A stretch of 35,962 nucleotides of DNA, taken from positions 4,335 through 40,296 of the forward strand of contig JBBTYK010000009.1 in assembly GCA_038061815.1 (NCBI GenBank), in the 5' to 3' direction. Below the pieces are notes generated by a model. That model saw nothing but the letters and a program-made list of their open reading frames with translations. It did not search any database and was not told the origin of the DNA. Source of the stretch: Patescibacteria group bacterium (GTDB lineage Bacteria; Patescibacteriota; Patescibacteriia; Magasanikbacterales; JBBTXJ01). Shown in pieces: positions 1 to 35,962 of the stretch (positions are counted from its first letter, which is position 1; every line of letters starts with the position of its first letter). The translations under genes were made by a program, and so were the position numbers.

Positions 1-1091
1 GCGGTAGCACGTGGTGCAACTGGGATAGCAACGGCTGTCCAACGGGTTGTCAGACTAGCACCACAACCGGTTACTGCGGCGACAAGACCTGCGTTACACC
101 GGAAACCGCTGCCTCGTGTCCTTCGGATTGCGGCACGAGTACCGGTGGCACGTGTACCGGTAACATTTACAGCGGCAACACCACAGCAACATGGTCGTGT
201 GACTGGACGTACTGCAAGAATGGGTGTGACTTTAATTCCAGCGGGTGTGCAAGCACATGCAAGCCAGCCTCAACAACCGCAGCTTGCGGCAACTACGTCT
301 GTGAGAGCGGTGAGACTTCTACCTCGTGCCCTTCAGATTGCGGCACGGGCGGTGGCACGAGCGGCGCTTGTACTCCCAACATCTACAACGCCAACACGAG
401 TGTGTCAGGCTCCTGTGACTGGACGTATTGTACGAGCGGATGTATGTGGAGCGGCAGTTGCGCGACCAGTTGTCAGACGAGCTCATCGCCCGCATCATGC
501 GGCAACCATGTTTGCGACAGCGGCGAGACCACCAGTTCGTGTCCGGCAGATTGCAGTAGCGTGTCTACGACATGCCCATCAACGACGGCAAATGGCAACA
601 CCACATCCTACACTTGCAGTTACACCGCCTGTCCAAGCGGATGCACATGGGACAGTCAAGGATGTCCGAATGGCTGCTACACGGCACCGGCGTCCTCTTG
701 CAACAGCAACGGCGTGTGTGATGGGAGCGAAACAGCATCATCCTGTCCCGCCGATTGCTCCACTCCCACTCCCACCTGTCCCAGCAATGGGTATAATAGC
801 GGTACGGGGAGTTACAGTTGCAACTACACCACCTGTCCGGCTGGATGCACCTGGGATAGTGCAGGATGCCCATCAGGCTGTCAGCCGAATCTCTGCAGCG
901 ACAATACGTTTAACGTGCCCGGCACCACGCAGTGCAATTTCACCACCTGTCCGAGCGGATGCACGTGGGGCGCCAATGCATGTCCGACCGGTTGCTACAC
1001 GGCGCCGCCAACGGCAAGCGGTTTCTTCCGCCGCCTCGGGAGCATTCTCTACGCGCTGATTACGCTTCCTGCGCGCGCGTTCGGCCTGTAG
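1..1091 (+). CDS. Cys/Ser/Thr-rich tandem-repeat secreted or surface protein (5' end outside window)
   Basis: Frame +3 is open from nt 3 to TAG 1089-1091. The ORF-track entry 402..1091 only starts at the first in-frame GTG. At least five ~70-aa modules repeat: CG(N/D)xxCxxGE(T)xxSCPxDC, then xCxYTxCxSGC(T/M)WxxxGCxxxC, joined by S/T-rich linkers. It ends in a hydrophobic tail GFFRRLGSILYALITLPARAFGL. No enzyme motif recognised. Confidence 0.75.
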   Translation, partial: GSTWCNWDSNGCPTGCQTSTTTGYCGDKTCVTPETAASCPSDCGTSTGGTCTGNIYSGNTTATWSCDWTYCKNGCDFNSSGCASTCKPASTTAACGNYVCESGETSTSCPSDCGTGGGTSGACTPNIYNANTSVSGSCDWTYCTSGCMWSGSCATSCQTSSSPASCGNHVCDSGETTSSCPADCSSVSTTCPSTTANGNTTSYTCSYTACPSGCTWDSQGCPNGCYTAPASSCNSNGVCDGSETASSCPADCSTPTPTCPSNGYNSGTGSYSCNYTTCPAGCTWDSAGCPSGCQPNLCSDNTFNVPGTTQCNFTTCPSGCTWGANACPTGCYTAPPTASGFFRRLGSILYALITLPARAFGL

Positions 1092-3969: not shown

Positions 3970-3970
3970 T

Positions 3971-4687
3971 ATGTCATCACTTTTTCAAACGATTCTCTAC
4001 CAGCCGCTTTTTAACGCGCTTGTTGGATTATACAACCTCATCCCCGGCACCGACATCGGCCTCGCCATTATTGCGCTGACCGTTTTCATTAAGGTGTTGC
4101 TGTACCCCTTGATGAACGCGTCCATCAAGGTGCAGAAATCACTGCAGGATTTACAGCCGAAATTGCAGGAATTGAAACAGCGCTACGGGAACAACAAAGA
4201 GGAGATGACGAAGCGGACGCTTGAATTGTACAAGACGCACAAAGTGAATCCGCTTTCTTCATGTTTGCCGATTCTCGTTCAAATTCCCATTTTGCTTGCA
4301 TTGTATTGGGTGTTGCGTGACGGGCTGGCAACAACCGATTTCTCGCGTTTGTATTCATTTGTCACGAATCCGGGCGCGCTTGACCCTGTGATGTTTGGAT
4401 TTGTGAATTTGGCGAAGCCGAATATTGTTCTGGCGATTTTGGCGGGCGCGGCGCAGTTTTGGCAGTCAAAGATGCTCATCGCAAAGCGGCCGCCTGCCGC
4501 TGCGGCGGCTGCGGGGGGCAAGGATGAGGATTTTGCCGCAATCATGAACAAACAGATGACGTACTTCATGCCGATTGTCACTGTGCTCGTGGGATTCCAG
4601 CTTCCGGGCGGACTGACGCTGTATTGGCTTGCGAGCACGGTGCTCACGGCGTTGCAGCAGTTGGTGGTGTTTCGGAAGGTCGCCTAG
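3971..4687 (+). CDS. yidC: Membrane protein insertase YidC (short form, 238 aa)
   Basis: ATG 3971 lies 1 nt after the nusA TAA. YidC/Oxa1 core blocks: NPLSSCLPILVQIPILLALYWVL and GGLTLYWLASTVLTALQQ. No large periplasmic domain. Confidence 0.9.
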   Translation: MSSLFQTILYQPLFNALVGLYNLIPGTDIGLAIIALTVFIKVLLYPLMNASIKVQKSLQDLQPKLQELKQRYGNNKEEMTKRTLELYKTHKVNPLSSCLPILVQIPILLALYWVLRDGLATTDFSRLYSFVTNPGALDPVMFGFVNLAKPNIVLAILAGAAQFWQSKMLIAKRPPAAAAAAGGKDEDFAAIMNKQMTYFMPIVTVLVGFQLPGGLTLYWLASTVLTALQQLVVFRKVA

Positions 4688-5305: not shown

Positions 5306-6196
5306 ATGTTGCGCACGCTCGCTTTTTTTGACGTTTTTGACCACCCGCTCTCGTTGTATGAGTGGTACGCATGGTCGTTGCGCGATGCGTGGCGTTCATG
5401 GGGCGCATTTCGCGACGCAGTGGATGCCCTTGAATGCGAGGGCCGCATTCGCGTGATTGACGGAATGGCGGCGCTGGCGGGACGGGAGCGGTTGATTGAG
5501 GCGCGTCGCGCGCGACAGGCGGTGATTGCACGCAACATGAAACGCGCCATGGGCGTGGCGCGGCTGCTTCAATGGGTGCCGTTCGTGGAGTTCGCGGCGG
5601 TGTGCAACCGATTGTCTGTTGGGCATCCTCACGAGGAGAGCGATATTGACGTGGTGATTATGATTCGCGATGGGCGGCTGTGGTTCGGACGATTGCTCGT
5701 GACGGCGTTTCTTCATCTCGCCGGTTTGCGGCGCCACGGGAACCGCATCGCGCGGCGCGTGTGTTTGAGTTTTTATCTGACACCGCGCGCCGCGGATTTG
5801 CAAACGATTGCGCTTCGCGATTGCGATGATGTCTATCTGCGATATTGGGTCGCGCATATTATTCCGCTTTTTGCGCGCGCGGGAGCGTTGGAAGATTTTT
5901 GGCGCGCGAACGAATGGGCGCATCATGCGTTGCATCAGGCGCCGCGGCCGGCGCCGCTGTTGCGCCGCCGTGCGCCGATTGCGGTTTTTGTGGCGGAGTG
6001 GCTGTTGGGCGGATGGGTGGGCAACGTGTGCGAGCGCGCGAGCCGCGCAGTGCAGTTGCGGCGCATGGGCAACGCGGCGGCGGGTCGCGGCACGGCCGTG
6101 GTGATTTCAGATGCCATGCTGAAGTTTCATGAAAATGACCGGAGACAATGGTACGCTGAACAATGGGAAGAGCGCGTTCGCGCCGTGGGCGCATAG
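5306..6196 (+). CDS. Hypothetical protein with a nucleotidyltransferase-like signature
   Basis: 296-aa ORF starting at ATG 5306, after GAGAGG. VGHPHEESDIDVVIMI resembles the G-x..D-x-D strand of Pol-beta-type nucleotidyltransferases. The rest is unassigned. Its 3' end overlaps the next ORF by 68 nt. Confidence 0.65.
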   Translation: MLRTLAFFDVFDHPLSLYEWYAWSLRDAWRSWGAFRDAVDALECEGRIRVIDGMAALAGRERLIEARRARQAVIARNMKRAMGVARLLQWVPFVEFAAVCNRLSVGHPHEESDIDVVIMIRDGRLWFGRLLVTAFLHLAGLRRHGNRIARRVCLSFYLTPRAADLQTIALRDCDDVYLRYWVAHIIPLFARAGALEDFWRANEWAHHALHQAPRPAPLLRRRAPIAVFVAEWLLGGWVGNVCERASRAVQLRRMGNAAAGRGTAVVISDAMLKFHENDRRQWYAEQWEERVRAVGA

Positions 6197-7553
6197 GGCG
6201 CGTTTCGCGCTTACCGCGCTTTTTTTTGTGGCGCTCCCGTGGCAGACACGGTGGATTTATCGCACATCTCCGATTCACCCTGATGCGGAATGGGGGCGTT
6301 TATCATGGTATGCGAGCGAGATGCTCCTTGGCGTGTTGCTCCTGTGGGCTATTGCGCATGCAATATGGTTGTGGCGCACGGGACGGTTCGCACGCCAGCC
6401 GTTTACACGCGAACGATGGTGGCTTGTCGGCGCGCTGGCAGTTCTGGCGTACGGTGTTTTGCGTTCCGTTTTAAACGATGCTCCGGCTGCCGGTCTTCAG
6501 CATTCATGGTGGCTTCTTGAGGCGGTTTTGACGATTGTTTTTTTACAAAGCGGCTGGTTTCCGTGGCGCGCGGCAGTATATGGATTTTTAATAGGCATGA
6601 CGATAGCCGCGTTGCTTGGAATAGGGCAGGTTGTTTTTCAATACGCGCCTGCGCAAAAATGGCTGGGGCTTGCCGAGCACATTCCCGCGCAAGGCGGCGC
6701 TTCGGTTGTTGAGTATGGCAGCACGCGATTTCTTCGCGCGTATGGCCCTTTTCCGCATCCCAATATATTTGGCGGTTATTTGGTGGCGGCGTTTTTATTT
6801 GTCATCCTGAGGCCCCGACAAATCGGGGCCGAAGGATCACGTACGAATGATGGTAACCCACCGGGATTCTTCAACTCCTACGCCGGGCTTCGGAGTTTCA
6901 GAATGACTCATCGGGTACTTACCATTCTTTTTACAGTCGCGCTCGCCCTCACCTTTTCGCGCGGCGCGTGGATTGCGTGGATTGCCGTGCTGTTGGCAGC
7001 GCTGTTTGTGCAAAAAAATCGCGCGTTCTCATCGGTGGCGTTATCTGTGCTCACCATGGGTGTCGTGCTCGGTGCTCTGTGGCCGGTGACTATCACGCGG
7101 TTTGACCGGACCGCGCGATTGGAAGCGCGTGCCATTGAGGAGCGGACAACGAGTGTCGCCGATGGCATCGCGTTATGGAAGCGCACGCCATGGTTCGGCG
7201 TCGGGCCGTCGCAATATGTGAACACGTTTTTTGTTCAACATCCTCCGTCAGAGGCGGATTTCGCGTGGTGGCAGCTCGCGCCGCCGCACCATACCGGTGT
7301 TGCGTTGCTCGTTGAGTATGGCGCGGTGGGCGCAACACTCGTCATACTCACGGCGTTGTTATTCCTCCGGTCTCTCATAAAAGGGGGAGAGTATCGCCCG
7401 TTGTTGTGGTTTTTGCCGCTCGTCGCACTCATGCAATTTGACCATTATCCATGGTCGCTGTATAGCGGTGTCATGCTTGTTGCTTTGTTTGCTGGATTTC
7501 GTACACATTCCATCCACACCATTTCCACCGTTGATACACAAATACGCTCTTGA
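6129..7553 (+). CDS. O-antigen ligase / Wzy_C family polytopic membrane protein
   Basis: 474 aa with many TM helices. Blocks HPNIFGGYL, LTFSRGAWIAWIAVLL and WFGVGPSQY parallel GNP(L/I)Y, ETR(G/A) and GWGxxNF in the paralog-like genes at 20829 and 23114. Start is ATG 6129 or 6135. Carries an in-frame repeat element (6801-6908). Confidence 0.85.
   Translation: MKMTGDNGTLNNGKSAFAPWAHRARFALTALFFVALPWQTRWIYRTSPIHPDAEWGRLSWYASEMLLGVLLLWAIAHAIWLWRTGRFARQPFTRERWWLVGALAVLAYGVLRSVLNDAPAAGLQHSWWLLEAVLTIVFLQSGWFPWRAAVYGFLIGMTIAALLGIGQVVFQYAPAQKWLGLAEHIPAQGGASVVEYGSTRFLRAYGPFPHPNIFGGYLVAAFLFVILRPRQIGAEGSRTNDGNPPGFFNSYAGLRSFRMTHRVLTILFTVALALTFSRGAWIAWIAVLLAALFVQKNRAFSSVALSVLTMGVVLGALWPVTITRFDRTARLEARAIEERTTSVADGIALWKRTPWFGVGPSQYVNTFFVQHPPSEADFAWWQLAPPHHTGVALLVEYGAVGATLVILTALLFLRSLIKGGEYRPLLWFLPLVALMQFDHYPWSLYSGVMLVALFAGFRTHSIHTISTVDTQIRS
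6801..6908. repeat. Hairpin-module doublet (ATCCT + ATTCT boxes) inserted in frame in the O-antigen-ligase gene
   Basis: gtcATCCTgag-gccccga/tcggggc-cgaAGGATc ... gggATTCTtca-actcc/ggagt-ttcAGAATgac. It translates as VILRPRQIGAEGSRTNDGNPPGFFNSYAGLRSFRMT. Confidence 0.8.
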
Positions 7554-8253: not shown

Positions 8254-8285
8254 AACGCAGCGCAACCGCGCTGCGTTTGGTTTTT
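8254..8285 (+). terminator. Rho-independent terminator for a + strand transcript, abutting the convergent GT-C gene
   Basis: aacgcagcgc (8254-8263) pairs with gcgctgcgtt (8268-8277) around loop aacc, followed by TGGTTTTT. There is no T tract on the minus-strand side. Confidence 0.7.
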
Positions 8286-9687
8286 ATTTCTCGTACCGCT
8301 CAATCATTACCGACCCCATGCCGTCAAAGTTTTTTGTTTCCTCATAGTTCCACCCATGCTCCTCAAGCCACTCGCGGACGCCAAGCACGTACGGGTCGCT
8401 CTGTACAACGAGAAGTTCGCCGTTTTTTGGGACAAGCGCCGCGAGTTGTTCGCGGAGATAGTCTGGTTTCAGCTCCCAGCGCCAGTTGTGAGCGAGGAGC
8501 GTTTGAATTGACGTATCGGCGGTGCCGGGCGCAGGGATAACGAGCGCTGGTACGGCGTCGCGATAGTAATGGCGAAATGGTAGCGCATTGACAGTCCACG
8601 GTATGAGTGTAATGGCGTCTTGTTGCGTTTCCGCAAATGCCGCAGCGCGGTCCCAACTGAAACGGAAGGTGCGCGTGAGTTGTGCGGTGCTCACTATGGC
8701 TATAACTATCAAAAATGCGGCCATCGCGGCGCGCCAGCGCGCGGTTACGGCGCCAATGATAATGGCGATGACCGGAAGCAAAAACAAAAAGTACTTGATT
8801 TTCGGCGGGCCGACGAGCAGAGCCACTATAAATCCGAGACCGAGAACGGTTATAGGAAGGAGCAGTGCGGTTTGTTTGGCGCGGATGCCGCGATAGAGGG
8901 CATATGCAACAAAGCCGAGCATCGCAGTAAACACGAGCCAATAGACATACCATGGCACAGTGCCAGCCACCATCGTGAGCGAACTCAACATACTGAACGG
9001 CCAGCCGCGGCGCGCTTCCGCGTGCGCGAACCAGCTGTTTGACGCAATGGCTCCCACTTTCGGCAAAAATGACCATGCAAACCAGAGGCCCCAAACGGTG
9101 ATGAGTACAAAATGTGTACAGTGCCACCGTCGCCTATTTTGTTTTTCATGCGTCAGCGCGCCCCACAAATAATAGGCGAACGCAGGGATGATGGCATACA
9201 AATGGCTGGCGAGCAGCAAGGGCAAACTTACATAATACGCGCGATGGCGATGCGTGATGAGAAAAAAGCAGGTGAGCAGTGTCAAAAACACAAACAGCGC
9301 ATACATACGCGCTTCGGTGGAGAAATAGATAAGGGTGGGCGAGACCGCAACGAGCGCGGCGGCGATGAGGCCAGCAGCAGGATTGGCGAGTTTTTTTCCA
9401 ATCAATCCAACCAATGGAATGGCTGCAACGCCAAGCGCAAGAGCCGGCAACCGCACAATCCATTCGGCGTGCGGCAGCAGATGCGCCCATGGCCACATGA
9501 TGATGGTCCAGAGTGGCGGGTTGGTGTCTTGGCTCGCAAGGCGCAGCATCTCAAGAAACGGCAGTTTCGCGAGTTCCAGCGTGAACAGTTCGTCAAACCA
9601 AAAACTTCCGCGCGTGATGAGAAAAACGCCGCGCGGAATCGCGCCGAGGATGGTTATGATAAATAGCCAACGAGAGAAATGTGACAT
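8284..9687 (-). CDS. GT-C fold glycosyltransferase (ArnT/PMT-like, GT39/GT83-type)
   Basis: 467 aa with 11 or more TM helices. The first loop, FWFDELFTLELA, carries the acidic DE motif typical of GT-C enzymes. Soluble C-terminal ~100 aa. Confidence 0.85.
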   Translation of the reverse strand: MSHFSRWLFIITILGAIPRGVFLITRGSFWFDELFTLELAKLPFLEMLRLASQDTNPPLWTIIMWPWAHLLPHAEWIVRLPALALGVAAIPLVGLIGKKLANPAAGLIAAALVAVSPTLIYFSTEARMYALFVFLTLLTCFFLITHRHRAYYVSLPLLLASHLYAIIPAFAYYLWGALTHEKQNRRRWHCTHFVLITVWGLWFAWSFLPKVGAIASNSWFAHAEARRGWPFSMLSSLTMVAGTVPWYVYWLVFTAMLGFVAYALYRGIRAKQTALLLPITVLGLGFIVALLVGPPKIKYFLFLLPVIAIIIGAVTARWRAAMAAFLIVIAIVSTAQLTRTFRFSWDRAAAFAETQQDAITLIPWTVNALPFRHYYRDAVPALVIPAPGTADTSIQTLLAHNWRWELKPDYLREQLAALVPKNGELLVVQSDPYVLGVREWLEEHGWNYEETKNFDGMGSVMIERYEK

Positions 9688-9688
9688 A

Positions 9689-9736
9689 CTAATTAGATTG
9701 CTTCGTCGCTCGCTACGTTCGCTCCTCGCAATGACA
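9689..9736. repeat. Hairpin-module singlet (ATTGC box), minus orientation
   Basis: The reverse complement reads tgtcATTGCgagg...gacgaaGCAATctaattag. It fills the whole prfA / GT-C gene spacer. Confidence 0.8.
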
Positions 9737-10777
9737 TCAACTTCGTGCCGCTTTTCTCAACTCCGCAATCATGCCGTCCAAATCTCCGTCTAAAATACTC
9801 GCGATGTTGCTCCAGCTTTCTTTAATGCGGTGGTCGGTGATGCGGTCTTGGGGGAAATTATACGTGCGGATTTTTTCGCTGCGCTCGCCAGTGCCGATTT
9901 GTTTTCGGCGTTCGGACACTTCGGTGGAATGGCGCCTTTCTTCTTCAATGTCCATGAGCCGCGCGCGCAAAATGGCCATCGCCTGTTCGCGATTTTGGTT
10001 CTGGTAGCGTTCATTTTGGCACTGCACTACGATGCCGGACGGGATATGCGTGATGCGCACTGCGGTTTCCACTTTATTTACATTCTGGCCGCCCTTGCCG
10101 CCGGAGCGATAGGTGTCCAGTCTCAAATCTTTGGGGTCAATGCGGATTTCGGTTTCTTCAATCTTCGGCAATACTGCCACCGTTGCGGTTGAGGTGTGAA
10201 TGCGCCCTTGTTTCTCCGTTTCCGGCACGCGCTGAACGCGGTGCACGCCCTGTTCATACTTGAGCGCGCGGTACACATGGTCTCCGGTGATTTCCGCGGT
10301 AATTTCTTTATAGCCGCCGATGCCGATGCGATTTTCATCCAGCACGCGCACGCGCCAGCCTTTGCGTTCCGCAAAGCGTGAATACATGCGATACAAATCC
10401 GCGGCAAACAGCGCGGATTCATCGCCGCCGGTTCCAGCGCGGATTTCAACGATGACGTCTTTTGCGTCGCGCTGGTCCTTGGGCGAGAGCGCTTCCTCAA
10501 GTTGCGCTTCAATCTCTCCGCGCTCTTTGGCCAGTCCGGCCAATTCAAAATCCGCCAGCTCTTTCATTTCATGGTTTTCTTCCGTACCCGCAAGCAGTTC
10601 CGTCTCTTTTATTTTCGCCTGTACACCCTCAAGGCGCGTGATAAGGTCCGCGGTCTTTTTGAGGTCGCTGTATTCCTTTGACAGTTTCGCGAGTTTTTTT
10701 GGGTCGCTCGCGGCGTGTTGGAGCTCCGTTTCTATCTCTGCAAGGCGGGTTTTGATGGTTTGGTAGTTAGTGGGCAT
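9737..10777 (-). CDS. prfA: Peptide chain release factor 1
   Basis: [17 protein letters not shown] (PxT-type motif) and [24 protein letters not shown] (GGQ). ATG 10777 ([12 protein letters not shown]...) is preferred over the ORF-track TTG 10825. Confidence 0.93.
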
Positions 10778-10783
10778 AGACGT

Positions 10784-10817
10784 AGTATATAACAAAACAG
10801 ACTGAACGTCTGTTTTG
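10784..10817 (-). promoter_or_regulatory. Perfect 10-bp palindromic hairpin plus extended -10-like TGtTATATA between rpmE and prfA
   Basis: caaaacagac (10793-10802) pairs with gtctgttttg (10808-10817). On the minus strand this is followed by TGTTATATACT, ending about 6-8 nt before the prfA ATG. Confidence 0.35.
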
Positions 10818-10825
10818 TTGAGCAA

Positions 10826-11251: not shown

Positions 11252-12016
11252 ATGGTAACCATTCCAACACTGGAGGACATGCTCAAGGCTGGGGTGCATT
11301 TTGGGCACAAAGTCAGCAACTGGCATCCCAGCATGGAACCCTACATTTTTACGGAGCGAAGCGGGGTTCACATTATCAATCTTGAGCTCACGCGGAAGAA
11401 ACTGGAAGAAGCGCTTGAGGCCGCGCGCCGGATGGCGGCGGAAGGCAAAACGATTGTTTTCGTAGGCACGAAAAAACAGGCGCAGGACATCGTGCGGCAG
11501 TATGCGGAACAATGCGGCATGCCGTACGCCAACGAACGCTGGATCGGCGGGCTCATCACGAATTTCGGTGAAATCCACAAGCTCATCAAAAAGTATCTGA
11601 CGCTGAAAGAACAAAAAGTGAACGGCGAACTTGAAAAGTACACAAAAAAAGAACAACTGGAGTTTGAGCGCGAGATTGAACGTTTGAGTCACATGGTGGG
11701 CGGTATTGCTACGCTTGAACGGCTGCCGGACGCGCTGTTCGTGCTTGACATGCGCGGCGAGAAAACCGCGCTCACGGAAGCGACGCGAAAAAATGTGACG
11801 GTGTTCGGCCTCTGCGACACCAACGCCAATCCGGCACGCGCCACGTACGTGATTCCGGCCAACGATGATGCCGTGAATTCCATCACGATGGTTGCATCGC
11901 TCATGGCCGAGGCCATCGCCGAGGGCCGTGCGGAATGGAAAGAAAAGCAGGCGACGCTGGCGGTGAAAAAAGACGAAAAAGTGGGACGCGTATTCACCAA
12001 GGAACAATCGGAGTAG
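11252..12016 (+). CDS. rpsB: 30S ribosomal protein S2
   Basis: MVTIPTLEDMLKAGVHFGHKVSNWHP... ATG 11252 sits in the context ATACCTATG. The ORF-track start 10991 would overlap rpmE and both promoters. Confidence 0.95.
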   Translation: MVTIPTLEDMLKAGVHFGHKVSNWHPSMEPYIFTERSGVHIINLELTRKKLEEALEAARRMAAEGKTIVFVGTKKQAQDIVRQYAEQCGMPYANERWIGGLITNFGEIHKLIKKYLTLKEQKVNGELEKYTKKEQLEFEREIERLSHMVGGIATLERLPDALFVLDMRGEKTALTEATRKNVTVFGLCDTNANPARATYVIPANDDAVNSITMVASLMAEAIAEGRAEWKEKQATLAVKKDEKVGRVFTKEQSE

Positions 12017-12022
12017 CAATGT

Positions 12023-12062
12023 GTCATCCTGGAGGCCTTGCGAAGCGAGGCCGATAGGATCC
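12023..12062. repeat. Hairpin-module singlet (ATCCT box) in the rpsB-tsf spacer
   Basis: gtcATCCTggag-ggcct/aggcc-gatAGGATcc. Confidence 0.75.
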
Positions 12063-12072
12063 AGACCTTATT

Positions 12073-12687
12073 ATGACGATAGACATAACCATCATTCAAA
12101 CGCTCCGCGCCAAGACGGGCGCAGGAGTTGCGGATTGCAAAATCGTGCTTGAAGAAACGAACGGCGACCTTGTTGCTGCGGAAAAATTGCTCCGCGAGCG
12201 CGGCGCCATCAAAGCGTCCAAGCGCACGGATAAGGAAACCAATGAAGGTGTGATTACTTCCTACATTCACCCGGGTGGAAGAGTGGGAGTACTTTTGATG
12301 CTCACCTGCGAAACGGATTTTGTGGCGCGGAACGAAAAGTTTCAACAGCTGGCGCGTGAACTGGCCATGCAAGTGGCGGCGGCAGACCCGCTCTATATTC
12401 GCGCGGAAGATATCCCGGCCGCGGATTTGGAGCGCGAGAAAGACATCATGCGCACGCAATTGGCGAACGAAGGCAAGCCAGCCGCGATGATTGATAAAAT
12501 CATTGAGGGCAAACTCAACGCATGGTACGAGGAAGTGTGCTTCTTGAATCAAAAGTATCTGAAAAACGAGGAAATCACGGTGGGCGAACTCATTAACCAG
12601 GAAATTGCATCGCTCGGCGAACGAATTGCAGTGAAACGGTTTGTGAAGTTTGGGCTGACCGGCGGCAACCGCGGTTGCGGGCTCTAA
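12073..12687 (+). CDS. tsf: Elongation factor Ts (short form, 204 aa)
   Basis: LRAKTGAGVADCKIVLEETNGDLVAAEKLLRERG (UBA-like N-terminus) and CETDFVARNEKF. Confidence 0.95.
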   Translation: MTIDITIIQTLRAKTGAGVADCKIVLEETNGDLVAAEKLLRERGAIKASKRTDKETNEGVITSYIHPGGRVGVLLMLTCETDFVARNEKFQQLARELAMQVAAADPLYIRAEDIPAADLEREKDIMRTQLANEGKPAAMIDKIIEGKLNAWYEEVCFLNQKYLKNEEITVGELINQEIASLGERIAVKRFVKFGLTGGNRGCGL

Positions 12688-12690
12688 CAT

Positions 12691-12714
12691 AAAACCACCC
12701 TAGGGTGGTTTTAT
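12691..12714 (+). terminator. Rho-independent terminator after tsf
   Basis: aaaaccaccctagggtggtttt is a palindrome ending in a T tract, 4 nt after the TAA. Confidence 0.75.
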
Positions 12715-12721
12715 GATTGTG

Positions 12722-12730
12722 TGATATACT
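12722..12730 (+). promoter_or_regulatory. Extended -10 promoter element upstream of gap
   Basis: TGaTATACT. No convincing -35. Confidence 0.4.
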
Positions 12731-12734
12731 ATAT

Positions 12735-12811
12735 GTCATTGCGAGGAGGGCCGATAGCCATCGGCCCGACGAAGCAATCTAATTAGATTGCTTCGCTCCG
12801 CTCGCAATGAC
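12735..12811. repeat. Hairpin-module doublet (ATTGC + ATTGC boxes) forming the gap 5' leader
   Basis: gtcATTGCgagg-gggccgat/atcggccc-gacgaaGCAATc TAATTA gATTGCttcgctccgctcGCAATgac. Its termini are GTCAT...ATGAC. Confidence 0.85.
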
Positions 12812-12813
12812 CC

Positions 12814-13818
12814 ATGAACACCATTCGTCTCGCTATCAACGGATTCGGACGCATTGGACGCAATGCGTTTAAGGTTGCGTTTGAACGCAAGGATGTTGTT
12901 GTAGTTGCGTTGAACGATTTAACGGATACGCGCACGCTCGCGCATTTGTTGAAATACGATACGATGTACGGCATCTACGGAAGGGAAGTTGGGTATGATG
13001 AGGAGCATCTGATAGTTGATGGTAAAAAGATTCCCGTGTATGCAAGCCCGGAGCCGGCAAAACTGCCGTGGAAGGAATTGCAGATTGATGTGGTGGTTGA
13101 ATCCACCGGACGATTTACGTCCGAGGAGGGCGCGCGGCAGCATTTGAAGGCCGGCGCGCGGCGGGTGGTTATTTCCGCGCCCGCAAAAGGCGGCAATGTG
13201 CCAACATTTGTGCGCGGCGTGAATGACGCATCGTACGCGGGGCAGGAGATTGTGAATAACGCATCGTGCACCACGAATTGCATTTCGCCCGTGATGGCGA
13301 TTATGGACGCGCGGTTCGGCGTGGAAAAAGCGTTTATGACCACGGCGCACGGCTATACCGCGGACCAGAATCTGCAGGACGGGCCGCATCGCGATTTGCG
13401 CCGTGCGCGGGCGGCGGCGTTGAATATCGTACCCACCACTACCGGCGCCGCGATTGCCACTACGGAAACTCTGCCGCAACTGAAAGGGAAATTTGACGGC
13501 ATCGCGCTTCGGATTCCGGTTGCGGTTGGTTCGCTGTCGGATTTTTCCATTCTTATCAAAAGAGCAACCAGCGTGGAGGAAGTGAAAAAAGTGTTTCGCG
13601 CGGCGGCAAAAAATCCGTTGTACAAAGATGTGCTGCAAGTGACGGAGGACCCGATTGTATCCAGCGACATCATCGGCAATCCCGCAAGCGCCATTGTGGA
13701 TTTGGAATTGGTGAAAGTGCTTGACGGCAATTTTGTCAAAATTCTCGCGTGGTACGACAATGAGTACGGCTACTCGCACCGGCTGGTGGAGATGGCGGTG
13801 ATGGTGGGACGGGGATAA
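12814..13818 (+). CDS. gap: Type I glyceraldehyde-3-phosphate dehydrogenase
   Basis: INGFGRIGRN NAD-binding motif, catalytic SCTTNC, WYDNEYGYS. 334 aa. Confidence 0.95.
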   Translation: MNTIRLAINGFGRIGRNAFKVAFERKDVVVVALNDLTDTRTLAHLLKYDTMYGIYGREVGYDEEHLIVDGKKIPVYASPEPAKLPWKELQIDVVVESTGRFTSEEGARQHLKAGARRVVISAPAKGGNVPTFVRGVNDASYAGQEIVNNASCTTNCISPVMAIMDARFGVEKAFMTTAHGYTADQNLQDGPHRDLRRARAAALNIVPTTTGAAIATTETLPQLKGKFDGIALRIPVAVGSLSDFSILIKRATSVEEVKKVFRAAAKNPLYKDVLQVTEDPIVSSDIIGNPASAIVDLELVKVLDGNFVKILAWYDNEYGYSHRLVEMAVMVGRG

Positions 13819-13824
13819 TAGGTA

Positions 13825-13853
13825 TTGACAAGTCATTATAAATACAATACACT
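13825..13853 (+). promoter_or_regulatory. Promoter of the dinJ-yafQ operon
   Basis: TTGACA (13825-13830), 17-nt spacer, TACACT (13848-13853). Short gtaca/tgtac inverted repeats between the -10 and ATG 13880 could be operator sites. Confidence 0.6.
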
Positions 13854-13879
13854 GACAGTACAGGTATTATTGTACGTCT

Positions 13880-14158
13880 ATGTCTCGCTATCAAAGTTAC
13901 ATTCAAGTGCGTATTGAAGAGCGCACGAAGAAGCAAGCCCAAAAAGTATTGGAAGATTTGGGGCTTGATTTAACGACGGCGGTCAAAATGCTCTGCAAAC
14001 AAATTGTCCACACGGGCGCACTACCGCTTGAGTTGCGTGATGCCAATGGTTTTACGGCCCAAAAGGCGGCCGAGTTGCGTTTGGCGCAATATGAGGCCAT
14101 GGCGTCTGCCAAAACATTTAAATCAGCCAAACATCTGCTGGATGACGCGCTCGCTTAA
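13880..14158 (+). CDS. dinJ: Type II antitoxin, RelB/DinJ family
   Basis: IQVRIEERTKKQAQKVLEDLGLDLTTAVKMLCKQIV is a ribbon-helix-helix N-terminus resembling DinJ. It lies 3 nt upstream of the toxin gene. Confidence 0.85.
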   Translation: MSRYQSYIQVRIEERTKKQAQKVLEDLGLDLTTAVKMLCKQIVHTGALPLELRDANGFTAQKAAELRLAQYEAMASAKTFKSAKHLLDDALA

Positions 14159-14161
14159 CGT

Positions 14162-14440
14162 ATGCTTCAACTGAAGTACAGCGGCACGTTTAAGAAGGAT
14201 TTAAAGAAAGTCAGCGGATTGCCGCAGTTTAATCGCTCACACGTTGAGCGCATACTTGCGCGACTTGCTGGGGGAGAACGGTTGGAACCACGTTATCGGA
14301 ATCATGTGTTGAAGGGACGGTTTCAAGGATGCTTTGAGTGTCATTTACGGCCTGATTTACTGTTGATTTATCAAATAGACCGTCAAGCGCATTTGCTTCT
14401 TTTGCTTCGGATAGGTTCACATTCAGAATTGTTTGGGTAA
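14162..14440 (+). CDS. yafQ: Type II toxin, RelE/YafQ family mRNA interferase
   Basis: YSGTFKKDLKK...HVLKGRFQGCFECHLRPDLLLIYQI...RIGSHSELF parallels YafQ (H..L.G....H..PD.L.IY...R.G.H..LF). Confidence 0.85.
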   Translation: MLQLKYSGTFKKDLKKVSGLPQFNRSHVERILARLAGGERLEPRYRNHVLKGRFQGCFECHLRPDLLLIYQIDRQAHLLLLLRIGSHSELFG

Positions 14441-14467
14441 ATTTTCATAGAAAAAAAGAAGCCGCGC

Positions 14468-14496
14468 AAAAAATCGCTATAAATAAGCGATTTTTT
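14468..14496 (+). terminator. Rho-independent terminator after yafQ
   Basis: aaaaaatcgct pairs with agcgatttttt around a 7-nt loop. Confidence 0.75.
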
Positions 14497-14502
14497 GGTC
14501 TC

Positions 14503-14531
14503 TTGACACACTTCGGCGGTTTTGTTACCAT
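14503..14531 (+). promoter_or_regulatory. groESL promoter
   Basis: TTGACA (14503-14508), 17-nt spacer, TACCAT (14526-14531). Confidence 0.65.
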
Positions 14532-14546
14532 TTGTTTCCGAGCCGT

Positions 14547-14573
14547 TTAGCACTCTTTTTAGGTGAGTGCTAA
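14547..14573 (+). promoter_or_regulatory. CIRCE operator (HrcA binding site)
   Basis: TTAGCACTC-tttttaggt-GAGTGCTAA is a perfect match to the consensus TTAGCACTC-N9-GAGTGCTAA, 16 nt downstream of the -10. Confidence 0.95.
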
Positions 14574-14579
14574 TCCCGT

Positions 14580-14666
14580 GTCATTCCGAGCGAGCGAAGC
14601 GAGCCGAGGAATCTAATCGTGAGATTTCTCCATTCACTCACGAGGCGTTCGTTCAGTCGAAATGAC
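14580..14666. repeat. Hairpin-module doublet (ATTCC + ATTTC boxes) in the groESL leader
   Basis: gtcATTCCgagcgagcgaagcgagccgagGGAATc taatcgtga gATTTCtcc...gtcGAAATgac. Confidence 0.8.
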
Positions 14667-14696
14667 CAGCTGAAAACTATTTAATCACCTATATCT

Positions 14697-14972
14697 ATGA
14701 CCATCCGACCACTCGGAAACAGGGCGCTTGTGCGTCCGCTTGAGGAGGAGAAAGTGACTGCATCAGGCATCGTAATGCCGGACACGGTTGACCGCGAAAA
14801 GAAAATTGAGGCCGAGGTTGTCGCGCTCGGCGATGGCGAAAAACTCGCGAAATTGAATTTAAAAGTCGGCGACCGCGTCATTGTTGAAAAATGGGGCGGG
14901 GAAGAAGTGAAACTGAATGAAAAAGAGCACAAAATCGTCAGTTTTCTGAAAATTTTAGCGGTTATTGAATAG
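14697..14972 (+). CDS. groES: Co-chaperonin GroES
   Basis: IRPLGNRALVRPLEEEKVTASGIVMPDT...VGDRVIVEKWGG. Confidence 0.97.
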   Translation: MTIRPLGNRALVRPLEEEKVTASGIVMPDTVDREKKIEAEVVALGDGEKLAKLNLKVGDRVIVEKWGGEEVKLNEKEHKIVSFLKILAVIE

Positions 14973-17169: not shown

Positions 17170-17333
17170 AGGGGGCTGTCGCCGAATGCCATTTCAACTG
17201 CAATCGCATAATTTCGGCCATAATTGCCTCAAAACTTTTCGGCTTATCGCCTATAAGCCTCAAAATTTATTCGGCAATTCTGTCTCGAAATTCTGCGATT
17301 TCGTTATGAAAGCGCATTCGGCGACAGCCCCCT
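17170..17333. repeat. 164-nt rod-like inverted repeat (MITE-like element or structured prfB leader)
   Basis: The 20-nt arm agggggctgtcgccgaatgc (17170-17189) is the perfect complement of gcattcggcgacagccccct (17314-17333). The AT-richer interior is again an imperfect palindrome (aatcgcaTaatttcg.../...cgaaattCtgcgatt) with apical hairpin ggcttat/ataagcc. Confidence 0.8.
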
Positions 17334-17335
17334 GT

Positions 17336-18430
17336 ATGACTCCCAAAGAACTGACAACCGAACTTGAGGCGTTGCAAAAAGCGGTTCGCGAGAACCGCGC
17401 TTTGGTGCGTCCGGATGAAAAGGAGCGCGAGATAGCGGAACTGGAGCGTGAGATGCAGAAACCGGATTTTTGGAAACATAATGAGCAGGCGCAGAGCGTA
17501 TCACAGCGTCATGCGCATCTTCGCGCGGAACTGTCGCTCTGGGAAACGCTTGAGAAAGAAGTGGGCGACCTTTTGGCGCTCGCCATAGAAGCGGGCGATG
17601 ATGCCGCGCTTGCATCAGATATTGAAAAACAAACCGCGGAACTCCGCGCGCGTTTTGAGCGCATGTCCGTAACACTGCTTTTGAACGGCCCGCACGATGA
17701 GCGGAACGCCATTATCGCGATTCACGCTGGCGCGGGCGGCACGGAAGCGCAGGATTGGGTGGGTATGCTGTATCGCATGCTGATGCGATACGCCGAACGC
17801 CGCGGATGGAAAACCACGGTAGTGGATGAGCACGAGGGCGCGGAGGCGGGATATAAATCCGTGGTGTTTGAGGTGCAGGGCGCGTCTGCGTACGGGTATT
17901 TGAAATCCGAAAACGGTGTACATCGGCTGGTGCGCATTTCGCCGTTTGACGCGGAAAAAATGCGGCATACGTCGTTTGCGATGGTGGAGGTTTTGCCGGA
18001 ATTGGATGACGCGGCGGAGGTGAAGATTGACGAGAAGGATTTACAGGTTGATACGTTCCGTTCCGGCGGCAAAGGCGGGCAGAATGTAAACAAAGTGGAG
18101 ACCGCAGTGCGCATTACGCATGCGCCGAGCGGCATTGTTGTGTCATGCCAGACCCAGCGTTCGCAGTTGCAGAACCGTGAAAGCGCTATGAAAGTTTTGC
18201 GCGCGAAATTATACGCGGCGGAACAGGAGAAAAAGGCAAAAGAAAAAGCGGATGTGCGCGGCGAGTTTCAGAGCGCGGAATGGGGAAGCCAGATTCGTTC
18301 CTACGTGCTCCATCCGTACCAGATGGTAAAAGACCATCGCACCGAGCACGAAACGCAGGACACCGCGGGCGTGCTGGACGGGGATTTAGACGCATTTACC
18401 GAGGCGTATTTGCGGTGGAGGAGAGGATAA
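17336..18430 (+). CDS. prfB: Peptide chain release factor 2 (single uninterrupted frame)
   Basis: RISPFDAEKMRHTSF (SPF motif) and [24 protein letters not shown] (GGQ). ATG 17336 gives an N-terminus of normal length (PDFW at residues ~43-46). The ORF-track start 16901 is an upstream open-frame artefact. Confidence 0.93.
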   Translation: MTPKELTTELEALQKAVRENRALVRPDEKEREIAELEREMQKPDFWKHNEQAQSVSQRHAHLRAELSLWETLEKEVGDLLALAIEAGDDAALASDIEKQTAELRARFERMSVTLLLNGPHDERNAIIAIHAGAGGTEAQDWVGMLYRMLMRYAERRGWKTTVVDEHEGAEAGYKSVVFEVQGASAYGYLKSENGVHRLVRISPFDAEKMRHTSFAMVEVLPELDDAAEVKIDEKDLQVDTFRSGGKGGQNVNKVETAVRITHAPSGIVVSCQTQRSQLQNRESAMKVLRAKLYAAEQEKKAKEKADVRGEFQSAEWGSQIRSYVLHPYQMVKDHRTEHETQDTAGVLDGDLDAFTEAYLRWRRG

Positions 18431-18597: not shown

Positions 18598-19320
18598 ATG
18601 CCCGCCATCTACCAGCCGCTCAAGCCCCCCAAGCTCTTGGGGCGCTTGGGCTACGTCTGTGGCCGGGTCATTCTGGAGAATGGCCATGCCTTCGTCGCCT
18701 ACACGTTGGACTGGATCGAGAGCGAACTTCGGAAGGCGATGGAGAAGAAGGACGAGGACAGTGAGCCGCTCGGGAGCCACGCCGAAGCCAAGGATGTGCT
18801 GGCGGCGGCGTGTAGCGCCGGTATGGCGGCGTCCATCGCCGTGATCCGGGAACGGGTTTCCCGGCTCGCGACGGACCTGCCACCGCATGTGGATATGGAT
18901 GATTGGGGTTTTGAGATGTGCAAGGATTCAGGGTGCCGTCTTCCGGTTTTGCACGGCAGGTTTCTGAAGGGGGAGAAGATCCAGCCGATGGCAACCTTTG
19001 GGGAGGCGTTTGCCTTCTGCTGGCAGGTCACGGAGGATGGGTTGATGACCACGGATCAGGCCGTGCGTCTGCTCAACCAGGCCGGCGAGTTGCCGCTGGA
19101 CAGGGCGGATCTCGCGCAGCGGTGGGATGCCCTGCCAGAGGAGGATTTCAAGCGGATCGTGCGTGAGCGGACGGCGCAGTTTGCGGAGCGGCTCGGTGGC
19201 ATGGTCCTCCTGGATCGGGAGGATTCCAAGGGGCATCGTCTGACCGCGATCGGCCTCGGTCTGCCGCCCGAAGTCGCCCGTGTGCTCGGGGAGCTGGTTC
19301 GCGAGCCCAGTGACGACTAG
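18598..19320 (+). CDS. Hypothetical protein (240 aa), orphan
   Basis: AAGGGGAGGG precedes ATG 18598. The sequence is protein-like and acidic, with no motif I recognise. By eye it prefers ATC/TTC/AAG codons more than neighbouring housekeeping genes do. Confidence 0.7.
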   Translation: MPAIYQPLKPPKLLGRLGYVCGRVILENGHAFVAYTLDWIESELRKAMEKKDEDSEPLGSHAEAKDVLAAACSAGMAASIAVIRERVSRLATDLPPHVDMDDWGFEMCKDSGCRLPVLHGRFLKGEKIQPMATFGEAFAFCWQVTEDGLMTTDQAVRLLNQAGELPLDRADLAQRWDALPEEDFKRIVRERTAQFAERLGGMVLLDREDSKGHRLTAIGLGLPPEVARVLGELVREPSDD

Positions 19321-20002: not shown

Positions 20003-20789
20003 GGATTATCGCGTGTATCCGGAAAAAACGCGCGGGCAGCATTTTTTGATTGACGACCAGTATGTGAAACGGATGGCGGACGCTTCAGGTATTACGAACA
20101 ATGATGTGGTGGTTGAAGTGGGGCCTGGATGGGGCATCTTGACCGAGGAATTGGCAAAACGCGCGGGGAAGGTGATTGCGATTGAGATTGAGGAGAAGAT
20201 GACATCGTATTTATACGATGTCATCCTGAGGGCCGCAGACCCGAAGGATCCCGCGTCGGTGCAGCGACCAGACGGGATTCTTCGCTTCGCTCAGAATGAC
20301 CGTTTAGAACTCCGGCACGGGGATGTGCGGCGGTTTTGGGACCAGATGCCCACGGAGCCGTATCACGTCATTGCCAACATTCCGTACCACATTACATCAC
20401 AGATTATTCGCGGTTTTTTGGAAAAAACGCCGCGAGCGCCGGAGCAAATGGTGCTCATGCTGCAAAACGAAGTGGCGGACAGAATTATCGCCAAGCCGGG
20501 CGACATGACCATGCTTTCGCTTTCGGTGCAGTGGTACGGCAAACCCAAAAAAATATTTCGCGTGCCGCGCGGCGCGTTTTGGCCGTCGCCGGAAGTGGAT
20601 TCCGCGGTGATTCAGATTACGGATATCAAGCGGCCGCCACCTGAAGAAACGAAGGCGGTACTCGCGCTTGCCAAGCGCGCGTTCGCGCAAAAACGCAAAC
20701 AGTTATCTTCTTCACTTGGTATTGCCTCCACTGCACGTCCGCAGGAATTGAGCATTGCGGATTGGCGCCGCCTTGCCGGCCGTGCTTGA
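19968..20789 (+). CDS. rsmA: 16S rRNA (adenine1518/1519-N6)-dimethyltransferase RsmA/KsgA, carrying a 27-codon repeat-element insertion
   Basis: GQHFLIDDQYV, VVEVGPGWGILTEEL (motif I), ANIPYHITSQII. ATG 19968 overlaps the tsaC 3' end by 35 nt. Confidence 0.9.
   Translation: MKYSEKVRQLCKDYRVYPEKTRGQHFLIDDQYVKRMADASGITNNDVVVEVGPGWGILTEELAKRAGKVIAIEIEEKMTSYLYDVILRAADPKDPASVQRPDGILRFAQNDRLELRHGDVRRFWDQMPTEPYHVIANIPYHITSQIIRGFLEKTPRAPEQMVLMLQNEVADRIIAKPGDMTMLSLSVQWYGKPKKIFRVPRGAFWPSPEVDSAVIQITDIKRPPPEETKAVLALAKRAFAQKRKQLSSSLGIASTARPQELSIADWRRLAGRA
20220..20300. repeat. Hairpin-module doublet (ATCCT + ATTCT boxes) inserted in frame in rsmA
   Basis: gtcATCCTgag-ggg..ccc-gaAGGATc ... gggATTCTtcgcttcgctcAGAATgac. 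81 nt, exactly 27 codons, translating as VILRAADPKDPASVQRPDGILRFAQND. Confidence 0.85.
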
Positions 20790-35159: not shown

Positions 35160-35239
35160 GTCATTGCGAGCTCCGCCCCTGGCGGAGCGAAGCAATCTAA
35201 TTAGATTGCTTCGTCGTGCTCCGCACTCCTCGCAATGAC
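35160..35239. repeat. Hairpin-module doublet (ATTGC + ATTGC boxes) between the aminotransferase-SDR gene and the next GT
   Basis: gtcATTGCgag-ctccgcc/ggcggag-cgaaGCAATc TAATTA gATTGCttcgtc-gtgc/gcac-tcctcGCAATgac. Confidence 0.85.
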
Positions 35240-35246
35240 TGGTGGT

Positions 35247-35962
35247 ATGATGAACCTAAAAAGTTTTTTCAAAATCTACCTTCGCAAACTCCTTCGTCTC
35301 AAACCGACGCGCAAACCGTTGTACGATTTTTTTTATTACGATGGCGTGCCGCACAAAAAACGCGCGCTTCTTGCGTATCGGGTGTTTGGCGTTTGGGCGC
35401 AGGCGCGCACAACGTGGAGCGCCATTGGCGATGTGCACGACGTACTCCGCGTTTTATCTGAAATGGGCTATCGCACGGATGTCATTGATTATGATGATAC
35501 GACCTTTATCCCAAAGCGAAAATACGACCTCTATATCGGTCATTACGGAAGCAATTTTGAACATATTGCCCCATTGTTGCTGAAGGAAACCGTGACCGTT
35601 TTTTATCCCATGTACGCGTATTGGAAGTTCCAGAACACGGAGGAGGAGCAGCGTCTCGCGGAAATACGGCAACGTTACGGCGTCACGCTTGCCGCCGAGC
35701 GCACCATTCGCGCAAGCGATGATTACGCGCTTGCGCATGCGGACGGCGTGATTGTGATGAGTAACTTACGCGGCATGAAGACGTATCCGCGCGACACCGC
35801 GATATTCCGCATCAACAATGCGGGATACGGCGGTGAAAAATGCATGGACCTCGCAACCAAAGATTTTGCGGCTGCGCAAAGTTTTTTGTTTATTGCCGGT
35901 TCCGGCAACGCGCACAAACGGCTGGATGTGATTCTTGAAGCGTTTGCCGGCATGCCGGATAA
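35247..35962 (+). CDS. Putative glycosyltransferase (GT-B / group 1-like), 3' end outside window
   Basis: This frame is open from 35205 to the window end, so it is absent from the ORF track. MMNLKSFFKIYLRKLL...FLFIAGSGNAHKRLDVILEAF resembles the start of a GT-B C-terminal domain. Alternative in-frame ATGs at 35235 (inside the repeat) and 35250. Confidence 0.65.
   Translation, partial: MMNLKSFFKIYLRKLLRLKPTRKPLYDFFYYDGVPHKKRALLAYRVFGVWAQARTTWSAIGDVHDVLRVLSEMGYRTDVIDYDDTTFIPKRKYDLYIGHYGSNFEHIAPLLLKETVTVFYPMYAYWKFQNTEEEQRLAEIRQRYGVTLAAERTIRASDDYALAHADGVIVMSNLRGMKTYPRDTAIFRINNAGYGGEKCMDLATKDFAAAQSFLFIAGSGNAHKRLDVILEAFAGMPD

Follow-up and report, generated by a model that had tools for sequence, protein, structure and literature searches.

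The window analysed here, a 35,962-nt stretch of Patescibacteria group DNA (contig JBBTYK010000009.1, positions 4,335 to 40,296), holds seven loci built from twelve copies of a short hairpin module. These modules very probably belong to the superfamily of GTC-tagged palindromic repeats that includes the CGTC-tagged repetitive extragenic palindromes (REPs), the dRS3/NTS repeats of Neisseria and the Ssn-related motifs (SRMs), i.e. they are Ssn-type hairpins. An earlier note, made from the sequence alone, had said that a match to a catalogued family would remove the novelty; the family matches both the CGTC-tagged REPs (PMC3733652) and the NTS/SRM hairpins (PMC11893778). The finding is a modest one, a new example of a described class in a little-studied bacterial group and not a new kind of element, and it would add the Patescibacteria, or Candidate Phyla Radiation (CPR), to the hosts of Ssn-type hairpin repeats. 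New in detail are the groundwater CPR host, the composite hairpins with GA loop and variable inner helix that published patterns miss, the coexistence of five box types, and two in-frame doublets, in ksgA and a Wzy-like gene.

Each module has the sequence form (Y)GTC-AT-N3-GA...GA(A)-N3'-AT-C and a total length of 25-45 nt. Reading of the loci, together with a mechanical scan of both strands (GTC plus 5 nt, with the reverse complement of those 5 nt within 60 nt), recovered the seven loci and twelve modules where the earlier note had placed them. The proximal box is ATTGC in five modules, ATCCT in three, ATTCT in two, and ATTCC and ATTTC in one each, and the distal box is its exact reverse complement in 12/12, again as first described. 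The GTC tag lies 5' of the palindrome in all twelve, the first two stem pairs are always A-T, with variation confined to three box positions, and in all modules the proximal box is followed by a GA (or GG/GAA) step and the distal box preceded by GA or GAA. A C stands immediately 3' of the stem in 12/12, the next base is a pyrimidine in 11/12, and a short tail follows the C. The base before GTC is T in seven modules, G in three and A in two; across genome loci (below) it is T 97, C 62, A 10 and G 3 times. Head-to-head doublets with GTCAT...ATGAC ends occupy 5/7 loci and singlets 2/7, and both ATTGC doublets have the common centre AATCTAATTAGATT, features that had all been seen before; the inner palindromes already listed were also all found, and the predicted folds agree with them. 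The original definition of the module can stand, with the qualification that the conserved unit is longer, taking in the pyrimidine before GTC, the GA/GA(A) internal loop, and the C with its short tail.

The repeat family is real and lies far above chance. Modules written as GTCAT-N3-(8..48)-revcomp(N3)-ATC number 11-12 in the window, against a mean of 0.54 and a maximum of 4 in 500 dinucleotide-preserving shuffles of it. With an arm pattern that does not force complementarity, 11/12 window matches were complementary, as were 11/14 on related CPR contigs and 218/247 on repeat-bearing viral contigs, vs 1/20 in control DNA; genome loci seeded only on the two distal arms had the complementary TGC on 162/172 upstream GTCAT arms. 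A permissive pattern for viral contigs, GTCAT-N3-GAG...GAAG-N3-ATC, was dropped, with 0/121 matches complementary, the chance level. The claim of compensatory covariation in 12 of 12 modules needs tempering: complementarity is perfect, but it involves only three variable positions and five haplotypes. The twelve copies are five haplotypes, old subfamilies present in many phyla, and not twelve independent compensatory events. These figures are direct counts; a MAFFT alignment of 32 modules misplaced the bulged A of the ATTGC type. One further site, at 18667-18686 inside an open reading frame (ORF) at 18598-19320, is a mini-palindrome (GTCATTCTGGAGAATGG) with the tag and an ATTCT/AGAAT box, a 2-nt loop, and G in place of the 3' C; it was left out of the module count and is either a minimal relic or a chance occurrence.

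In the predicted folds of the single-stranded DNA (ssDNA), the boxes of each module pair over 5 bp, and an internal GA loop (2x2 or 2x3) separates this stem from an inner helix of 2-8 bp. Stability is very high where the inner helix is long (z -3 to -5); minimal modules, e.g. GTCATTCTGAGCGAAGCGAAGAATC, are by nearest-neighbour rules no more stable than shuffled sequence. For doublets with identical boxes the fold of lowest energy (about -32 kcal/mol, z about -9) is a long hairpin or cruciform in which module pairs with module; in the mixed doublets (ATCCT+ATTCT, ATTCC+ATTTC) such a fold contains a mismatch. It is the mixed doublets, and they only, that show within-module pairing to be the conserved feature. 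Secondary structure rather than primary sequence had been said to be conserved; the structure is, and so is the sequence.

Chenal et al. (2025, Nat Commun 16:2388; PMC11893778) described Ssn, a 94-aa single-domain GIY-YIG nuclease that binds and cuts the NTS hairpin (CGTCATTCCCGCGMAVGCGGGAATCYRG; its variant NTSvar is CGTCATACTCGGG-N5-CCCGAGTATC). According to the same paper (PMC11893778), the enzyme acts on ssDNA and on the tagged strand only, not on double-stranded DNA and not on RNA; binding depends above all on the C that follows the palindrome and cleavage above all on the three bases that precede it, the nick falling a few nucleotides upstream; loop identity is dispensable and loop extension tolerated; and ssn genes are typically bracketed by repeats in a module-ssn-module arrangement like that of an insertion sequence (IS). 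The invariant GTC tag, A-T stem start and 3' C of the window modules are features of Ssn targets, the tag and the C being critical for the enzyme, and argue for membership in its target class, and the variable self-complementary insert is understandable because Ssn tolerates loop extensions. The window repeats share with NTS and the SRMs an (H)GTC tag followed by A-T, the hairpin, the C after the stem, the strand polarity and the tolerance of any loop, along with hundreds of dispersed copies and the module-ssn-module layout (ATTGC type, 71/80 metagenomic loci). They differ in the stem, which in NTS/SRM is a perfect GC-rich helix of 8-9 bp and in the window consists of the 5-bp box and a variable inner helix (up to ~30 nt) separated by the GA/GA(A) internal loop, and in the host, CPR/Patescibacteria being unmentioned in Chenal et al. 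(PMC11893778).

The CGTC-tagged REPs of Di Nocera et al. (2013; PMC3733652), families CGTC-1 to -4, include Neisseria dRS3 and the Rickettsia palindromic elements RPE-4 and RPE-6; they have an unpaired CGTC/TGTC tag, stems nearly always starting A-T and a short tail, occur mostly as head-to-head dimers, have intragenic copies, and show no association with a transposase. The window modules share the unpaired GTC tag (often TGTC), the A-T stem start, the short tail, the predominance of head-to-head dimers, the in-frame intragenic copies and the lack of a transposase. However, the CGTC-REPs have 8-9-bp stems and 4-5-nt loops, a geometry outside which the window modules fall; their tail is CCA vs mostly CTA in the window, where the CGTC tag never occurs; and the intragenic peptides listed for them (e.g. 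VIAGLDPAI...) are all of the perfect-stem type, none of the GA type. A full-text literature search with the repeat sequence returned only unrelated primer matches. As far as searchable text shows, the GA-loop/variable-apex form is not explicitly described, and we treat it as the same system.

Modules of this type bracket genes for a small GIY-YIG nuclease. Three loci found by a genome scan for the ATTGC doublet core contain ssn-like ORFs (L366, L266 and L269), and at L366 a 98-aa GIY-YIG ORF is bracketed by inverted GTCATTGCGAG...CGAAGCAATC modules; on one viral contig (L206) a frameshifted ssn-like gene lies between CGTC hairpins. Relatives of two such proteins number at least 8000, all of about 95-99 aa and all PF01541. 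Among 80 metagenomic loci encoding relatives of the L366-type protein, an inward-facing GTC-tagged hairpin was present within 250 nt on at least one side in 71 and on both sides in 53. The ATTGC box was found in 51/59 upstream and 56/65 downstream flanking hairpins, most of which are GTCATTGCGAG...CGAAGCAATC; several, at L378, L389 and L428, are identical to module 6 of the window, and ATTCT-type modules accompany the gene at L408 and L449. Usually a module is followed after 15-30 nt by ssn and, 4-12 nt past the gene, by the inverted module. Residues Y9, Y20 and E67 of the ssn-like proteins stand at a constant +3 offset from the catalytic Y6, Y17 and E64 of Neisseria meningitidis SsnA, to which, from the sequences, we infer that they correspond. 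PDB and NCBIfam have no entry for the nuclease. Other candidates were set aside: the Escherichia coli YhbQ-type GIY-YIG protein shows no enrichment near the repeats and belongs to a clade other than the partner's; clustering of ORFs near repeats on viral contigs gave only shared structural genes of phages and gene transfer agents (GTAs); and a scan for module pairs about 330 bp apart, aimed at ssn, gave only repeat arrays.

The unit would then be a strand-specific ssDNA hairpin, with unpaired (Y)GTC tag, A-T-starting stem, tolerated GA loop, variable apex and a C after the stem. By analogy with the characterised members, a GIY-YIG Ssn of ~94 aa would bind such hairpins as ssDNA on the tagged strand and nick upstream, and a head-to-head doublet would give the enzyme one target per strand. 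Most likely the dispersed copies derive from the IS-like module-ssn-module unit as non-autonomous offshoots, perhaps spread by the nuclease itself, and those in this CPR genome would have landed in spacers and 5' leaders and, twice, as in-frame doublets. A protein-recognised DNA hairpin, one of the possibilities raised in the earlier note, is the best reading, and its several sublineages and REP/REPIN-like geometry (doublets of individually palindromic units) were also confirmed.

A number of points weigh against assignment to the Ssn targets. To our knowledge, transposition of any element by Ssn has never been demonstrated. Motif scan, phmmer and hidden Markov models (HMMs), run over the 36-kb window, ~50 kb of syntenic sequence from three relatives (L241, L243, L244) and the CPR loci, turned up no ORF for Ssn or another GIY-YIG protein; named Ssn-like proteins from Patescibacteria are absent among the best 120 matches in two protein-database searches; and the GIY-YIG clade used here is only putatively the published Ssn family (CDD cd10448). 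Same-species contigs (99-99.9% identity) have no indels and no insertion polymorphism, hence no sign of current activity. Five box types coexist though SsnA activity depends on stem sequence (PMC11893778), which would call either for several nucleases or for many relics. Lastly, the published SRM pattern, HGTCWYN(0-2)YYVSBRHN(0-5)WNVSBRGN(0-2)RNCYNB, matches 0/12 window modules. The pattern recognises NTS and NTSvar test sequences and finds 2 sites in 80 ssn loci holding 266 GTCAT-box modules; it is therefore too narrow, and its miss is no disproof of membership.

The earlier note had likened the repeats to REPs and REPINs mobilised by RAYTs, transposases of the IS200/IS605-like Y1 kind, systems reportedly described by Nunvar in 2010 and by Bertels and Rainey in 2011. 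The outline is alike, i.e. short tagged hairpins with an unpaired 5' tag, palindromic units found alone or in inverted pairs that can fold into a long hairpin, no target-site duplications and, presumably, a single-copy cognate enzyme acting on ssDNA. However, RAYT systems have a GTAG (GTGG) tag and an HUH/Y1 transposase, and the window has neither: its tag is GTC, and domain searches found no Y1_Tnp domain among its ORFs and no transposase or GIY-YIG domain, so that the remark that the window lacks a transposase was correct. At 71/80 loci the bracketed gene encodes a GIY-YIG nuclease, a single domain of ~95 aa, and GTC-tagged repeats show no transposase association (Di Nocera et al., PMC3733652). 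Mobilisation by a RAYT is very unlikely, and the link drawn to it falls away.

The 173 doublets gathered from all data sets lack target-site duplications (flanking direct repeats, 1-8 nt, are no commoner than by chance), which fits a single-strand mechanism; in their flanks, conservation is confined to the base preceding GTC (T 96, C 62). The same result largely refutes ordinary miniature inverted-repeat transposable elements (MITEs), i.e. internally deleted DDE-type IS with terminal inverted repeats GTCATTGCGAG...CTCGCAATGAC. The doublets do resemble elements of 77-108 bp with terminal inverted repeats of at least 11 bp, but complete single modules are common, each half of a doublet is itself a hairpin with conserved unpaired bases, and the same ends bracket a 95-aa nuclease gene and not a transposase. 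We give this explanation almost no weight.

It is also improbable that the hairpins are mainly RNA elements (mRNA stabilisers, terminators or translation modulators) conserved for their RNA structure. Several copies do lie in 5' leaders or short spacers of co-directional genes, some modules are very stable hairpins, and many REPs have been argued to be transcribed (Di Nocera et al., PMC3733652). However, single copies between co-directional ORFs show no sense/antisense bias (38:38 on viral contigs and 10:7 in genomes, with crude ORF calls), two doublets are translated in frame, and the short modules do not exceed shuffled sequence in stability. Rfam gave 0 matches at gathering thresholds over the whole window and none relevant at E<=1 over 11900-14800. 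The invariant GTC tag and 3' C are unpaired bases important to a DNA-binding protein, and Ssn is reported not to bind RNA (PMC11893778). The RNA-level role entertained in the earlier note finds no backing here.

The twelve modules are listed here by locus. The doublet in the Wzy-like gene (6801-6907) consists of module 1 at 6801..6838 (+), with boxes ATCCT/AGGAT, inner helix GGCCCCGA/TCGGGGCC and a DNA fold of -14 kcal/mol (z -5.2), as its left half, and module 2 at 6865..6907 (-), with ATTCT/AGAAT and inner helix AACTCC/GGAGTT, as its right half. Module 3, at 9696..9735 (-), is a singlet (ATTGC/GCAAT, tail CTAATTAG) that lies one base past the TGA stop of a release-factor gene, 9737-10825(-), and upstream of a PMT_2-like gene, 8284-9687(-). 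Module 4, at 12023..12061 (+), is the other singlet (ATCCT/AGGAT, inner helix GGCCT(TGCGAAGCG)AGGCC, tail CCAG) and sits in the rpsB-tsf spacer. The tsf-gap spacer holds a doublet of module 5, at 12735..12779 (+), with ATTGC/GCAAT and inner helix GGGCCGAT/ATCGGCCC, on the left, and module 6, at 12786..12811 (-), the minimal form GTCATTGCGAGCGGAGCGAAGCAATC, on the right. In the groES leader, module 7 at 14580..14613 (+), with ATTCC/GGAAT, begins 4 nt past the CIRCE operator and makes a doublet with module 8 at 14623..14666 (-), with ATTTC/GAAAT. The ksgA/rsmA doublet pairs module 9 at 20220..20250 (+), with ATCCT/AGGAT, on the left with module 10 at 20276..20300 (-), the minimal form GTCATTCTGAGCGAAGCGAAGAATC. 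Downstream of a DegT-epimerase fusion gene lie module 11 at 35160..35197 (+), the left half, with ATTGC/GCAAT, inner helix CTCCGCC/GGCGGAG and a fold of -13.3 kcal/mol (z -4.6), and module 12 at 35204..35239 (-), the right half, with ATTGC/GCAAT and inner helix GTGC/GCAC.

Comparison with syntenic contigs of relatives (L241-L245, about 80% protein identity to the window) revealed differing occupancy at the ksgA, rpsB-tsf, tsf-gap and groES-leader sites, which points to mobility or turnover of the repeats. The rpsB-tsf spacer, with module 4 in the window, is 1 nt long in L242 and L244; the tsf-gap spacer has a doublet in the window, a different singlet in L242 and nothing in L244; and the groES leader has ATTCC+ATTTC in the window, ATCCT+ATCCC at almost the same position in L244 (5189-5295), and is unoccupied in both L241 and L242. 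Module 8 shares 91% identity with L244 15067-15110, a non-orthologous locus upstream of mraZ. At this relatedness the flanks of filled and empty sites are too diverged to place exact insertion boundaries. Differing box types at orthologous sites, i.e. the groES leader (window vs L244) and the Wzy-like gene (ATCCT+ATTCT vs ATTGC in the relative P0362), suggest re-insertion hot spots, gene conversion or in-situ compensatory change. Module density among the relatives is 0.7-5.9 per 10 kb vs 0.33 in control DNA. Within that range it is about eight-fold apart at similar relatedness, 0.7 in L241/L242 vs 3.8-5.9 in L243/L244, which suggests lineage-specific expansion or purge. Such occupancy differences between related CPR genomes are useful material on the multiplication, and the possible GIY-YIG mobilisation, of GTC-tagged hairpins.

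The copies might instead be decaying remnants of a past invasion, their cognate protein or function gone from the genome. This would account for the lack of an ssn gene in the 36-kb window or the ~50 kb of relatives, for the lack of polymorphism among same-species contigs, for the five box types side by side, and for a close relative (L241/L242) with almost no modules. Yet all 12 copies keep a perfect tag, box complementarity and 3' C, and the orthologous groES-leader and Wzy sites stay complementary despite their other box type, which indicates continuing selection or turnover. We consider the relic explanation unlikely, though less so than the RNA, RAYT and MITE ones.

Both intragenic doublets, reported earlier as of the ATCCT+ATTCT type at two loci, are in frame, 81 nt in ksgA and 108 nt in the Wzy-like gene, and are absent from homologous proteins generally. 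The ksgA doublet encodes VILRAADPKDPASVQRPDGILRFAQND, between the IAIEIE and HGD motifs. An insert with diverged interior is present in the four closest KsgA orthologues and missing in the next one (P0004) and most others; in an AlphaFold model its pLDDT is 51-56 vs >90 in the core. The other doublet lies inside a Wzy_C (O-antigen-ligase-like) ORF at 6129-7553 and encodes a 36-residue segment. In an exhaustive HMMER search many homologues of the Wzy-like protein match in two stretches that break at residues 226/262, and their alignment shows an extra loop in the window protein; a 60%-identical relative (P0362) has at the same place a doublet of the other type (VIAR...LLAMT, i.e. ATTGC). We propose that the in-frame doublets sit in tolerant surface loops of KsgA and the Wzy-like protein, which makes them clean cases of selfish palindromes tolerated inside the proteins of a reduced genome. 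The intragenic share, 2/7 loci in the window, compares with 2% for NTS in N. meningitidis. RPEs, which Ogata et al. are said to have found inserted in protein-coding genes in 2000, are likewise in-frame palindromes in housekeeping genes, tolerated as an extra surface peptide, and RPE-4 and RPE-6 are GTC-tagged; they differ in host group and sequence subtypes, and the RPE-1 type is much longer.

The empty ksgA site in L241 (about 3960-4000) reads GTGTCATGAAAC, which resembles fused doublet termini (GTCAT|GAC), and GTTTCAT is present in two other unoccupied sites, the L242/L244 gap and groES leaders. Such sequences may be the footprint of an excision, mark a preferred target, or have arisen by chance.

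Copies outside the window, a point on which the earlier note had made its proposal depend, were found in relatives, viral contigs and many genomes. The pattern GTCATTGCGAG-N(4-34)-CGAAGCAATC occurs in at least 120 IMG/VR contigs, where a rough size estimate predicts ~1 match by chance, so the family is very large. The genome scan for the ATTGC doublet core gave at least 116 loci. Their phyla are diverse (Omnitrophota, Desulfobacterota, Alpha- and Gammaproteobacteria, Planctomycetota, Chloroflexota, cyanobacteria, Bacteroidota, Nitrospirota, Elusimicrobiota and others), and several CPR assemblies are among the sources, namely the Patescibacteria metagenome-assembled genome (MAG) H52-bin078_1, MAGs of an Uhrbacteria and a Saccharibacteria member, and the L241 assembly; the module type is present in at least 90 genomes of many phyla, four CPR lineages among them. 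Set aside as unrelated were 23 doublet-core seeds with no GTCAT arm nearby (including Neobacillus, Streptomyces and Aerococcus). Such seeds (L254, L259, L271, L277, L284, L339, L350, L365, L369 and similar) share a chance GAAGCAATC-N6-GATTGCTTC and come from Neobacillus niacini (five strains), Streptomyces, Aerococcus, Corynebacterium, Trichococcus and gut Firmicutes.

Phage-like IMG/VR contigs with portal, capsid and tail genes (L123, L126, L135, L156 and about 20 related ones) each have several ATTGC modules, most of them a short way ahead of a ribosome-binding site, and GTA-like contigs carry modules too; the repeats thus also populate viral or prophage DNA. Arrays were seen as well: L166 has four identical 25-nt modules in tandem at 2695-2818 with a 33-bp period, and L251 and L253, from seemingly GC-rich hosts, carry complete doublets, CGTC-tagged and with a CCA tail, in arrays that resemble bacterial interspersed mosaic elements (BIMEs).

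The commonest environmental form (ATTGC box, GA internal loop, variable apex) is invisible to the published SRM and CGTC patterns, so that published counts of the repeats, and of their association with ssn, are probably too low. A bolder version of the Ssn reading would make the GA-loop GTCAT-box hairpins a very large, phylum-spanning subclass of Ssn targets missed by both published patterns and, in CPR, in active movement, with a GIY-YIG nuclease serving as a novel type of ssDNA transposase (no target duplication, a Y|GTC boundary, the same sites reoccupied by other box types). The hairpins would then reshape essential proteins and leaders of minimal genomes, or gate DNA-uptake-dependent recombination, on which CPR cells are thought to rely. 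We hold this to be doubtful, about on a par with the relic explanation.

The host is a member of the Patescibacteria (CPR) near Candidatus Magasanikbacteria, as judged from KsgA homologues, and contigs from the groundwater site at Hainich encode proteins identical to those of the window. Housekeeping genes (nusA, yidC, rpsB, tsf, gap, groES/groEL, two release factors, sua5, ksgA) characterise the window, which also carries a RelB/YafQ toxin-antitoxin pair and a large glycosyltransferase/Wzy cluster; no tRNAs were found in it.

We note some peculiarities of the window: (i) Upstream of groES (14503-14575), a perfect CIRCE operator (TTAGCACTC-N9-GAGTGCTAA) comes after a promoter-like TTGACA-17-TACCAT, and the repeat doublet of the groES leader lies between CIRCE and the start codon. 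(ii) The RelB antitoxin/YafQ toxin pair is placed between gap and groES (13880-14440), where L242 has only a RelB-like gene. (iii) The N-terminal domain match of NusA (2776-3969) spans residues 4-159 vs a profile of 119 positions, i.e. ~40 extra residues, with no GTCAT module. (iv) A same-species contig (L246, 99.9% identity) is colinear with the window up to 35686, a few hundred bases after the last doublet, and then diverges (35686-35962), either by strain rearrangement or by an assembly join. (v) Two class-I release-factor genes (PCRF and RF-1 domains) lie 6 kb apart on opposite strands, at 9737-10825 (-) and about 17186-18430 (+); in the syntenic stretches fetched from relatives, only the one after groEL is present.

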